A stretch of DNA of 43,399 nt, taken from Candidatus Aenigmatarchaeota archaeon (lineage in GTDB: Archaea > Aenigmatarchaeota > Aenigmatarchaeia > Aenigmatarchaeales > DAIDAN01). Both the position numbers and the translations under genes were made by a program. A model generated the notes under the pieces. It made no database searches. It saw only the letters and a list, made by a program, of their open reading frames with translations, and was not told where the DNA came from. Location of the stretch: positions 1-43,399 of the forward strand of contig JAVHRC010000073.1 of NCBI GenBank assembly GCA_036171435.1. Direction: 5' to 3'. Below are positions 2,529 to 38,745 of this stretch, piece by piece; position 1 is the stretch's first letter, and every line of letters starts with the position of its first letter.

Positions 2529-4187
2529 ATGAACGGACAAGGACAAATGGGAGGGCAGAATATATTCGTGCTGCCGGAAGGGACTTTGAGGACTTTGGGA
2601 AGGAACGCACAGCACGCGAACATCGCCGCTGCGAAAGCCGTTGCTGACGCAGTCCGCACAACGCTCGGCCCGAAGGGAATGGACAAGATGTTAGTTGATT
2701 CAATGGGCGACGTTGTGATAACAAACGACGGGGTAACAATTCTTGAGGAAATGGAAATAGAACACCCGGCGGCAAAAATGATGGTTGAGGTTGCAAAGAC
2801 GCAGGAAGAAGAGGTTGGAGACGGGACAACAACAGCCGCAGTTCTTGCTGGAGAACTTCTGAAAAAGGCGGAAGTGTTGCTTGACCAGAACGTGCATTCA
2901 ACCGTGATAACGAAAGGTTTCAGGCTTGCAAAGGAAAAGGCGCTTGAGCTCATGAACAGCATTTCAAAGGAGATAAAGCCGAGCGACAGCAGCACGCTGA
3001 AAAAAATAGCAATAACCGCGATGACAGGAAAAAGTGCTGAGCGCGCAAGCGAGCATCTCGCGGACATAGCAGTGCAGGCAGTGAAAATGGTCATGGACGA
3101 GGAGAACGGCAAGATAGAGGTTGACACGGACAACATACAAATCGAGAAGAAGCACGGAGGAAGCATCGAAGACACTGAATTGATAAAAGGAATAGTCATA
3201 GACAAGGAAGTTGTGCATCCTGGAATGCCAAAACATTTGAAGGACGCGAGAATCGCGCTCGTGGATTCAGCCCTTGAAGTAAAAGAAACTGAGACTGACG
3301 CGGAGATAAGGATAACTTCGCCGGAACAGATGCAGGCATTCATAGAGCAGGAGGAAAAAATGCTGAGAGACATGGTGGAAAAGGTCGCGGCAAGCGGAGC
3401 GAACGTCTTGCTCTGCCAGAAAGGCATTGACGACATAGCGCAGCACTATCTTGCGAAGAAGGGAATAATGTCCGCAAGACGCGTGAAAAAATCCGACATG
3501 GAAAAACTCGCTCGCGCAACAAAGGGCAGGATTGTGACAAGCCTGAAGGACATTTCAAAAGAAGACTTGGGATTCGCTGCGATTGTAGAAGAGAAAAAGA
3601 TAGCGGGAGAGCAGATGATTTTCGTTCGCGAGTGCAAGGACCCGAAAGCTGTTTCAATACTCATCCGCGGCGGAACAGAGCACGTGATTGAAGAGGTAAA
3701 AAGGGCAATGGACGACGCAGTCGGCGGTGTCGCGTCCTCGCTTGAAGTTGGGAAAGTTGTCGCGGGAGGCGGAGCTCCTGAAGCTGCAGTTGCAAAAGGC
3801 TTGCGCGAGTTTTCCCAGAAATATTCGGGAAGGGAGCAACTTGCAATACAGGCGTTCGCTGAAGCGCTTGAAGTAATACCAAGGTCGCTTGCGGAGAACG
3901 CAGGGCTTGACCCGATAGACATTCTTGTGGCTTTGCGCGTAGCGCACGACAGCGGAAAAACGACGGCGGGCGTTGACGTGTTTTCCGGAAAAGTGATAGA
4001 TATGTGGGAAGCCGGAGTGATCGAGCCGCTAAAAATAAAGACGCAGGCAATCAAGTCAGCGTCAGAGGCTGCGGAAATGATTTTGAGAATAGATGACATA
4101 ATTTCCGCGGGCAAGCTCTCGCACGGCGGCGGAGGAATGCCGGGCGGAATGCCTCCCGGAATGGGCGGTATGGAAGGGATGGAGTAA
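2529..4187 (+). CDS. ths: Thermosome subunit (group II chaperonin)
   Basis: 552 aa with [65 protein letters not shown] and a Gly/Met-rich C-terminal tail ([20 protein letters not shown]). GGTGA lies 5 nt upstream of the ATG. Confidence 0.97.
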
Positions 4188-10055: not shown

Positions 10056-10201
10056 GGGTCTATAGTCTATCGGTAGGATGCTACCCTCACACGGTAGAGA
10101 GCCTGGTTCAATAAGCCCTTTTCTTTTTAATCCGAAAGTGCAAAAGAAAAGCGCTTGCGGAAAAGAAAATAAAGAAACTGAGATTCCGGGTAGACCCACC
10201 A
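10056..10201 (+). tRNA. tRNA-Val (anticodon CAC) with a 72-nt intron in the T-loop (59/60); CCA encoded
   Basis: Hand-folded. Acceptor GGGTCTA/TAGACCC, discriminator A. Anticodon arm CTACC-CTCACAC-GGTAG. T-stem CCTGG (10102-10106) / CCGGG (10186-10190). Spliced T-loop TTCAATT. Confidence 0.85.
10113..10184 (+). other. tRNA intron at 59/60 (hBH motif); diverged member of the shared intron family
   Basis: The T-stem forms the outer helix. The central 4-bp helix is TTCA (10107-10110) with TGAG (10179-10182). The 3-nt bulges are AT|A and AT|T. The core hairpin GCCCTTTTCTTTT/AAAAGAAAAGCGC and the purine-rich tail are homologous to 37068..37132 and 38531..38590. Confidence 0.75.
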
Positions 10202-36874: not shown

Positions 36875-37067
36875 AAATTATTTTTGATTATTAATTACCT
36901 ATCTATTGGACAAATATGTATATAAAGTTAAGCGGCTGCTTTCAAGTGGCAACTTTTCGCAAGAAATTAAAGCATTAAATAGGTTTCAACCAAAATAAAA
37001 CTTACGCTGAGGTAGCCAAGCGGTACGGCGCTAGCCTGCTAAGCTAGTTCCCGCAAGGGATCGTGGG

Positions 37068-37132
37068 AGGCCTTTTTCTTTACAAAAGAAAAACGCCTGC
37101 GAAAAAGAAAGAATAAGAAAAAGGTCCGCGAA
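37068..37132 (+). other. tRNA-Ser intron 1 at 53/54 (HBh' motif); member of the shared intron family
   Basis: The central helix is CGTG (37062-37065) with CGCG (37127-37130). The 5' bulge is GG|A. The 9-bp inner helix is GGCCTTTTT (37069-37077) with AAAAAGGTC (37118-37126). The 3' cut falls 2 nt after the helix (AA|T), which puts TTCGAAA at the start of the next exon. Confidence 0.7.
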
Positions 37133-37138
37133 TTCGAA

Positions 37139-37225
37139 ATTGGGATAGGGAAAGAAATTTCCTTTGGTTGATGCTCTTCAAGAGGAAGAGGTTACCCAAA
37201 GGGGAAACCTTAGGTTTCCCCTGGT
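37139..37225 (+). other. tRNA-Ser second T-arm insertion (putative intron 2, boundaries approximate)
   Basis: It must be removed to join TTCGAA (37133-37138) to T60 plus CCCAT. The insert is highly structured, with helices 37149-37153/37158-37162, 37163-37167/37196-37200, 37174-37179/37185-37190 and 37201-37209/37213-37221. I could not find a complete BHB by hand. Confidence 0.45.
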
Positions 37226-37261
37226 TCCCATCCTCAGCGCCAATAATTTTAAAGTGGTTTC

Positions 37262-38400: not shown

Positions 38401-38484
38401 ATTTTTTAATGATTATCTGTGTATTTATATTCTTTGCAGGAAAACTAATATTTGACTTGAAATATGGGCTGGTAGATCAACGGA

Positions 38485-38497
38485 AAACGATCGTTAA
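38485..38497 (+). other. 13-nt mini-intron in the D-loop of tRNA-Ala (hBH motif)
   Basis: The D-stem GATC (38475-38478) / GATC (38499-38502) is the outer helix. The central helix is AACG (38479-38482) with CGTT (38492-38495). The bulges are GA|A and AA|A. The spliced D-loop is AACGGAA. Confidence 0.55.
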
Positions 38498-38530
38498 AGA
38501 TCGCCACCTTGGCATGGTGGAGGTTCCGAG

Positions 38531-38590
38531 AGGCCTTTTTCTTTTCAAAAGAAAAACGCCTGCGAAAAAGAAAGAATAAAGGCTCGGGAG
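38531..38590 (+). other. tRNA-Ala intron at 53/54 (HBh' motif); member of the shared intron family
   Basis: The central helix is TCCG (38525-38528) with CGGG (38585-38588). The 5' bulge is AG|A. The inner helix is GGCCTTT (38532-38538) with AAAGGCT (38578-38584). The 3' cut is AG|T. The first 49 nt match 37068-37116 with one substitution. Confidence 0.7.
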
Positions 38591-38596
38591 TTCGAA

Positions 38597-38684
38597 AATG
38601 CACGAGAGAAAAACGCAAGTTCAACGGAACGGGGGTATCAGGAAAACCCTTGAACTGAAGGGGGCGGAGCCCCCTGCGGTTCGG
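38597..38684 (+). other. tRNA-Ala second T-arm insertion (putative intron, boundaries approximate)
   Basis: It lies between TTCGAA (38591-38596) and T60 plus CTCGG. The structured helices are 38603-38607/38685-38689, 38614-38616/38676-38678, 38618-38624/38650-38656 and 38660-38665/38669-38674. No complete BHB was found by hand. Confidence 0.45.
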
Positions 38685-38745
38685 TCTCGGCCAGTCCACC
38701 ACTTCTTCAAAAGCTATTTAAAACATAAAACAAAATCTTGATTCT

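Follow-up and report, generated by a model that had tools for sequence, protein, structure and literature searches.

A tRNA-Ala(GGC) gene interrupted at three sites was found at 38466-38701 (+) of the window, the whole stretch of 43,399 nucleotides that was analysed. Its 236 nt include inserts of 13 nt in the D-loop (20|21), 60 nt at 53|54 and 88 nt at 59|60, 161 nt in sum. It is likely that this is a functional tRNA gene of a DPANN (Aenigmatarchaeota-like) archaeon, that its three sites are spliced through bulge-helix-bulge (BHB) motifs, and that the 59|60 insert comprises two nested introns. Splicing in silico, with the three inserts taken out, gave a perfect 75-nt tRNA-Ala(GGC) cloverleaf in ARAGORN, with G3:U70, A73 and CCA. 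The alanine identity set is complete, the third acceptor pair being formed by G and T, the discriminator being A and the anticodon GGC.

The four exons were assigned from the cloverleaf and from orthologs. Exon 1 (38466-38484, +), which is identical in five orthologs, begins at 38466 with the acceptor strand GGGCTGG (GGGCUGG in the RNA) and continues with U8, A9, the 5' D-stem strand GAUC and the D-loop bases AACGGA. Exon 2 (38498-38530, +) holds the 3' strand of the D-stem, the anticodon arm CCACC-TTGGCAT-GGTGG with the anticodon GGC, the variable loop AGGUU and the 5' T-stem strand CCGAG. Exon 3 (38591-38596, +) is a 6-nt island, UUCGAA, that provides T-loop positions 54-59; orthologs are uninterrupted here and its boundary is exact. 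Exon 4 (38685-38701, +) supplies the last T-loop base, U60, followed by CUCGG, CCAGUCC (with U70 opposite G3), A73 and an encoded CCA.

The T-arm region reads CCGAG (38526-38530), then AGG and a conserved element from 38531, CTCGG (38583-38587), AG and TTCGAA; 3' of TTCGAA follow the structured insert, T (38685), CTCGG (38686-38690), CCAGTCC, A and CCA ending at 38701. A first-pass annotation had proposed this layout for 38526-38690, and it is present as described, except that the exonic part between the two interruptions is TTCGAA (38591-38596) only and the insert is 38597-38684, as fixed by an uninterrupted ortholog. Both T-arm introns of that annotation were found; a D-loop intron at 38485-38497, outside the coordinates it covered, also exists. 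Its proposal that the gene is under selection as tRNA-Ala, which cited G3:U70 and A73, agrees with the cloverleaf obtained after splicing and with exons that are identical at 75/75 positions in four orthologs.

A possible TATA-like box (TTTATATT; 38424-38431, +) was read from the sequence some 38 nt before the tRNA 5' end, and the orthologs in L029 and L160 are preceded by the same conserved block, ttatattctttgcaggaaaactaatat; box and block may have a promoter role. The window is otherwise an ordinary archaeal chromosome encoding Topo VI A/B, a thermosome and a class I aminoacyl-tRNA synthetase. Neither EndA nor RtcB was found among the 14 of 39 window ORFs (at least 110 codons) that were compared with Pfam.

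Fixed exons and changing inserts in five orthologs

Orthologs were located by tracing homologs of the downstream protein on contigs (94, 87, 86 and 82% identical; L159-L162), and L029 was included. tRNA-Ala(GGC) is present in four of these loci, L162, L159, L029 and L160, and its exons are identical at 75/75 positions across all five genes; L161 contains a tRNA-Ser ortholog and gave no tRNA-Ala match. The inserts at 20|21, 45|46, 53|54 and 59|60, in that order, measure 13, 0, 60 and 88 nt in the window; 13, 0, 59 and 131 nt in L162; 66, 29, 0 and 0 nt in L159; 0, 29, 0 and 0 nt in L029; and 14, 0, 0 and 0 nt in L160. The T-arm is uninterrupted in L160, L029 and L159, where it reads CCGAG-TTCGAAT-CTCGG, and L162 has a different 59|60 insert. 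This comparison, which the first-pass annotation had called for, revealed clean presence or absence of the inserts and no decay.

Inserts were placed by prefix and suffix comparison against the uninterrupted orthologs. The 59|60 insert is exactly 38597-38684, 88 nt, with zero positional ambiguity. The orthologs allow four placements of the 53|54 intron and three of the D-loop intron (ambiguity 2 nt), in each case including the one predicted from the BHB motif; the L029 D-loop is AACGGAA, without the intron. A 29-nt intron at 45|46, with a GUGG/CCAC central helix paired at 4/4 positions (direct reading), was observed in L159 (1615-1784) and L029 (3637-3740, -) and is absent from the window gene. 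At the D-loop site, L159 carries a 66-nt intron resembling element A (described below) where the window keeps 13 nt, suggesting that mini-introns are deletion remnants.

Splicing motifs were searched for with a script built on the following geometry: the central helix (H) has 4 bp, each of its strands is followed on the 3' side by a bulge of 3 nt, and the cut falls after the second bulge base. The 13-nt D-loop intron (20|21; 38485-38497, +), absent from L029, has a strict hBHBh' motif in which H is AACG/CGUU, 4/4 paired, the outer helix h is the 4-bp D-stem and the bulges are GA|A and AA|A; its BHB fold lies within 0.2 kcal/mol of the MFE. The 60-nt intron at 53|54 (38531-38590, +), termed element A, is absent from L160, L029 and L159. 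It consists of a U-rich/A-rich hairpin, AGGCcUUUUUCUUUU..AAAAGAAAAAcGCCU, a purine tail, UGCGAAAAAGAAAGAAUAAAGG, and CUCGGGAG.

The cuts at 53|54 fall where the first-pass annotation had put them, in a relaxed HBh' motif with H formed by UCCG (38525-38528) and CGGG (38585-38588), 4/4 paired, an h' of 7 bp and bulges AG|A and AG|U. The AG that had been described as a 2-nt bulge is present and corresponds to the first two bases of the 3-nt bulge AG|U. Co-variation of CGGG with the T-stem had also been claimed, and CGGG is indeed the intron strand of this helix, which is paired at 4/4 positions in 8 of 9 tRNA genes with 7 distinct exon tetramers, compared with only 15% for mismatched gene pairs. 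The conserved element of the 53|54 intron has 2 matches in the window, against 0.01 expected. The D-loop intron (strict) and the 53|54 intron (relaxed HBh') both belong to the archaeal BHB introns; excision in silico restores a canonical tRNA, and intron-less relatives have matching junctions.

The 59|60 insert as a probable pair of nested introns

The 59|60 insert most likely represents two nested BHB introns. The first-pass annotation had described a single structured intron of about 88 nt; the length is exactly 88 nt, and in place of one intron there are probably two, the body of the insert (its 3' two-thirds) being a copy of an element designated B. The 5' part of the insert would be an outer mini-intron of 16 nt (AAUGCACGAGAGAAAA; 38597-38612, +) that becomes BHB-like after removal of the inner intron and contains a decoy T-stem strand, CGAG (38603-38606), and a dual-use tetramer, AGAA (38607-38610). 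The putative inner intron of 72 nt (38613-38684, +) sits at the 3' junction of the mini-intron and comprises an ACGCA box, a small hairpin and the element B core (38631-38684).

In the inner motif, h is the 4-bp helix CGAG (38603-38606):CUCG (38686-38689), H is AGAA (38607-38610):GUUC (38679-38682), which pairs at 2/4 positions, h' is the 4-bp helix CGCA (38614-38617):UGCG (38675-38678), and the bulges are AA|A and GG|U. In the outer motif, formed without the inner intron, h is the T-stem itself, H is UUCG (54-57)/AGAA, 3/4 paired, and the bulges are AA|A and AA|U; the helix of the outer mini-intron always has the R57 mismatch. The helix between the decoy CGAG and the 3' T-stem strand is present in the unconstrained MFE fold, in keeping with the pairing of CGAGA with that strand that had been noted at first, and equivalents occur in Ser, Arg and Val genes. 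Under the nested scheme, which covers eight genes, CGAGA provides the outer-helix strand of the inner motif.

When enforced, the inner BHB conformer was less stable by 10.6 kcal/mol than the MFE fold, where the long hairpin of element B stays intact, and adding a helix between the first G-run and the C-run of element B gave it no energy benefit. The motif of element A lies 8.4 kcal/mol above its own MFE, however, and the 4/4 motif of the D-type inserts (see below) 7.9 kcal/mol above its own, so fold energy alone does not discriminate.

Nesting is suggested by relatives in which the mini-intron stands bare and by a pair of genes that differ exactly by the presence of B. Bare mini-introns of 13-16 nt, with the arrangement X, AGAAAA, U, where X is a copy of the 5' T-stem strand, occur in L007, L036 and the tRNA-Ser gene of L159, and in Aenigmatarchaeota-like genes element B has AGAAAA on its 5' side and, on its 3' side, the U destined for position 60. 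Between the tRNA-Ser gene of L160, which has B, and that of L159, which lacks it, the difference is exactly one 65-nt unit, ACGCC...GGTTCGG, at the predicted inner cuts. The nested pattern, an inner motif and an outer 3/4 motif that share one purine tetramer, was recognized in eight genes with two unrelated inner elements. Five of the eight carry an inner B with 2-3 of 4 pairs in H (2/4 in the Ala gene and 3/4 in three other genes). The remaining three, the window tRNA-Ser (37153-37224), L161 Ser and L162 Ala, carry element D, with H AGGG/CCCU 4/4 paired in all and an inner helix of 7 bp in both Ser genes and 2 bp in L162 Ala.

The transcript would be spliced at three sites by a BHB-recognising archaeal splicing endonuclease and an RNA ligase. 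The 13-nt D-loop intron would leave through its strict BHB with the D-stem as outer helix, and the 53|54 intron through its relaxed BHB, in which exon bases 48-51 would pair with CGGG at the 3' end of the intron. The inner 72 nt would be presented by a BHB built from the decoy CGAG with the 3' T-stem strand, AGAA:GUUC and CGCA:UGCG. After inner excision, the 16-nt mini-intron would refold such that the real T-stem forms and UUCG of the T-loop pairs with the same AGAA, and the cuts would fall after A59 and before U60. The final T-arm, CCGAG-UUCGAAU-CUCGG, would equal the uninterrupted T-arm of the relatives. Splicing itself is predicted from sequence, as are its two-step order and the use made of the inner helix; this holds above all for the nested step, because the inner central helix is weak (2/4).

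The possibility was considered that the 88 nt are removed as one intron, by single cuts after A59 and before U60 on half-motifs or a very relaxed motif, with no ligated intermediate. The final product would be the same, the inner central helix is weak at 2/4, and broad-specificity endonucleases that accept hBH/HBh' are known (PMC4090602, PMC5829648). However, no one motif connects the two outer junctions: in a scan run both with element A in place and with it removed, which tolerated 2-4 nt in the bulges and 3/4 pairing in the helices, no single BHB motif with at least 3 pairs in H and a supporting helix joined 38596|38597 to 38684|38685, and only noise-level candidates appeared. A later relaxed BHB scan gave many chance matches and was used solely for confirming specific motifs. 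Moreover, AGAA cannot pair with both of its partners simultaneously, and each D-type insert has its own complete inner motif. Removal as one intron is therefore considered unlikely, though it comes closest of the alternatives to the nested reading.

Three other pairings were rejected. T-loop UCGAA with UUCGG of the B tail (5 bp) as a central helix would imply cuts after which the T-loop has 8 nt or the T-stem 4 bp, and together with the T-stem it makes one unbroken, bulge-free hairpin. The B tail UUCGGU as the real T-loop has only 6 nt and no A58, and the hairpin of decoy and T-stem with the loop AGAAAAU was examined as the mature T-arm; orthologs have UUCGAAU in place of either.

Elements A, B and D in tRNA genes and beyond

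A metagenome scan for the element B hairpin returned at least 120 loci (L039-L158). The consensus consists of a G-run, (A/U)AUCMGGA, a 2-bp closing helix, AACUG-A-A-G-run, a loop and C-run-U-G-CGGUU. One closing pair covaries strongly (CG 29, GC 11, UA 5, AU 4), and the window copy of the core scores 73 bits with covariance model R1. A search of 268 kb of Aenigmatarchaeota loci with R1 yielded no further copies, and a regex search for diverged copies yielded no material for covariation of the main hairpin. The lengths of the 5' G-run (38631-38635 in the window), the hairpin G-run (38660-38664) and the C-run (38670-38674) co-vary across copies, which suggests an alternative helix between the first G-run and the C-run and hence a two-state RNA; for a typical copy this alternative state is about 5 kcal/mol less stable. 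In the literature, searches with the sequence motifs of element B returned unrelated papers only.

Among the 125 B copies listed, 57 are flanked by direct repeats of the target of 12-74 nt. At five B loci, 14/14 base differences between the repeat copies are synonymous in one frame. It is as if B travelled together with part of the neighbouring gene, taken from a diverged allele.

Alternatively, B might exit independently of the splicing endonuclease, as a self-cleaving RNA or as a tRNA-like minihelix cut by other RNases, the BHB-like pairings being incidental. B is autonomous, widespread and structured, with a conserved unpaired 5' motif; its own fold is far more stable than the BHB conformer, and by direct reading its 12-bp hairpin is as long as an acceptor-plus-T minihelix. 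However, a search of the 88-nt insert against Rfam found no family, whether ribozyme, C/D or H/ACA guide or other, at E<=10 beyond chance-level matches (E>=2.5), and the core positions of the hammerhead are unsatisfied (direct reading). Hammerheads and other known ribozymes, C/D guides and group II domain V were rejected as identities for B, for want of Rfam support and because core positions misfit. RNase P or RNase Z ends, furthermore, do not suit an RtcB-type ligase.

Outside the lineage, B lies inside ordinary BHB introns. In L149, it is in a tRNA-Gly(GCC) intron at 59|60 with a perfect hBHBh', in which H is UCCG/CGGA and the T-stem is the outer helix, and in L117 and L152 it is in BHB introns at 37|38. 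An ARAGORN deletion-scan around B copies was too permissive for defining junctions and served to pick tRNA-linked copies for manual reading. Since ordinary BHB introns carry B in these three loci, B has no need of self-excision, and an independent exit is given only a small chance.

The possibility that the locus is a tRNA pseudogene filled with repeats, the cell using another Ala tRNA gene, was prompted by gene finders that fail to recognise it and by 161 nt of inserts that include mobile repeats. ARAGORN reported 0 tRNAs in the whole window, and Rfam gave no tRNA match at 38466-38701 even at E<=10; its sole tRNA match in the window was the 5' part of tRNA-Val, 10056-10119 (5' 64 nt). Of at least three tRNA genes in the window, ARAGORN therefore detected 0 and Rfam 1, in part. 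Removing only both T-arm inserts was insufficient for ARAGORN; the 13-nt D-loop intron had to go as well. Against a pseudogene, the exons are intact and match those of the four orthologs at every position, in contrast to flanks and a neighbouring protein that have diverged by up to 18%, the identity elements and the encoded CCA are intact, the splice-motif pairings of each insert are adapted to its own exon context, and the promoter-like upstream block is conserved. Identical exons with clean, differing inserts and a perfect cloverleaf make a pseudogene very unlikely.

Returning to the gene as a spliced tRNA gene, its 53|54 intron belongs to a family that is shared with other genes. A scan with a 21-base core pattern, one genome per species, placed the element A core at 34 loci, nearly all in Candidatus Aenigmatarchaeota MAGs, and the element occurs in tRNA genes of 30+ loci at D-loop, anticodon and T-arm sites. 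In the window, it is found at 53|54 of tRNA-Ala and tRNA-Ser and, in a diverged form, at 59|60 of tRNA-Val. Near-identical introns in different isoacceptor genes and at different positions define an intron family of the Thermoproteales type, and element A is such a family.

tRNA-Ser(GCT) (37006-37242, +) carries element A at 53|54 (37068-37132), followed by a T-loop island (37133-37138) and a nested insert whose inner intron is the copy of element D described above. At the nested site, its orthologs have B in L160 and L143, D in L161 and a bare mini-intron in L159. BLAST of the window tRNA-Ser insert against the collected loci other than the relatives L161 and L162 gave no match. tRNA-Val(CAC) (10056-10201, +) has a single diverged element A intron at 59|60 (10113-10184), with H UUCA/UGAG paired at 4/4 positions and the T-stem as outer helix; ARAGORN called this gene only after in-silico splicing.

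Copies of element A were also observed inside 23S and 16S rRNA genes (L009 3312-3335; L020 3524-3547; L019 7757-7780), indicating that one intron family colonises tRNA and rRNA. In eight loci (L005, L010, L011, L014, L018, L022, L026 and L035), element A starts exactly on a TAA stop codon (TA|AGCCC...), and the protein ORFs that end on it have 90-280 codons. The T5 run of element A could terminate archaeal transcription, which in the tRNA gene counts against the splicing reading, and with T5 on one strand and T-rich runs on the other, element A may act as a terminator at ORF ends.

A split gene, in which separately transcribed pieces are joined in trans as in Nanoarchaeum with the T-run of element A as terminator, has a next to negligible probability, for although element A has T5, sits on the stop codon of eight protein genes and has arms that could pair like leader and trailer, those arms are joined by a 1-3 nt loop with no room for a promoter, the pieces follow one another without gaps in their order and in one orientation within 236 nt, unlike those of split or permuted genes, and element A also lies within 16S and 23S rRNA genes.

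In contigs of the same organism (Logan L001-L004), short-read assemblies are broken within element A, some 190 nt upstream of the neighbouring gene; the contig is present in the Logan runs SRR25490525/35/37/40. Such breaks are expected of a multi-copy repeat, and assemblies will often lose tRNA genes of this kind.

A small module, GCACG-hairpin-CGGCGUGCC-hairpin, was seen in L029 (reverse complement, 3672-3723), L015, L032 and L005/L006/L026; it makes up part of the tRNA-Ser insert of L029 and elsewhere lies in the loops of element A and within element B, in its variable region. The introns have a mosaic build, being put together from A, B, D and this small hairpin module.

Relation to known introns and implications

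The architecture is an instance of the known non-canonical, multiple and nested BHB introns of archaea. In Crenarchaeota, it is established that introns occur at 20/21, 45/46, 53/54 and 59/60, that motifs can be of the relaxed hBH/HBh' type and that different tRNAs share intron families (PMC4090602). The multi-intron tRNA genes of Thermoproteales and other Crenarchaeota (Sugahara et al. 2007, 2008; PMC4090602) use the same positions and relaxed motifs, have up to 3 introns per gene and are invisible to standard finders, as is the window gene. Compared with the genes described there, the present one belongs to a DPANN lineage, has two interruptions in one T-arm with a 6-nt exon between them and, if the nested reading holds, contains four BHB motifs.

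Nested archaeal tRNA introns, in which the last BHB forms only once the others have been removed, have been described (PMC3728597, citing Sugahara 2008). They share with the arrangement proposed here a motif that needs prior excision and an ordered splicing. The features that set the window gene apart from that account are an inner intron placed exactly on the 3' junction of a 13-16-nt mini-intron, a purine tetramer that would form the 5' strand of one central helix and later the 3' strand of the next, and a decoy T-stem outer helix. No description of a dual-use tetramer, a decoy strand or a junction-sited inner intron was found in the literature searched. The nuclear tRNA genes of Cyanidioschyzon merolae also have ectopic and multiple BHB introns (PMC3728597), in a eukaryotic host and with introns that are stated not to be nested.

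The transposed intron families of Thermoproteales (a 2010 study, as summarized in PMC4090602) are likewise near-identical introns in different genes and positions that are rapidly gained and lost between close relatives. Element A differs from the families in that summary in its additional occurrence in 16S/23S rRNA and on protein stop codons, and the introns here are modular. In ARMAN/Micrarchaeota and other DPANN, non-canonical, multiple introns co-occur with loop insertions of the endonuclease (PMC3488258, PMC5829648); these papers describe no Aenigmatarchaeota genes, none of the present intron families and no double T-arm interruptions, and a literature search for papers on Aenigmatarchaeota tRNA introns found none. 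What appears to be new is the lineage, an exon of 6 nt flanked by T-arm interruptions on both sides, the dual-use tetramer together with the decoy strand, and modular families that also occupy rRNA genes and gene ends.

A wider reading, which is tentative and given less than even weight, is that 38631-38684 is an undescribed mobile structured RNA that spreads with a piece of the host gene and for which BHB introns are safe landing sites. The window gene would then be a four-intron gene with a decoy-dependent nested excision, and the element would be a two-state RNA in which two G-runs compete for a single C-run.

The findings bear on how DPANN genomes are interpreted. Incomplete DPANN tRNA sets have been attributed to unidentified disrupted genes (PMC5829648). 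With ARAGORN and Rfam detecting 0 and 1 of the three or more tRNA genes in the window, the "missing" tRNAs of DPANN bins can be heavily interrupted genes rather than losses, and hidden tRNA genes of this kind affect completeness estimates and claims of host dependence for such bins. The dual-use tetramer and the decoy strand lead to specific predictions on the substrate range of the DPANN splicing endonuclease, and a common environmental RNA-like element without family assignment has been brought to light. Finally, invariant exons, one to three interruption sites, swappable modules and a neighbouring protein that is 82-94% identical make the orthologs a clean natural series, useful for studying the gain, exchange and loss of archaeal introns.
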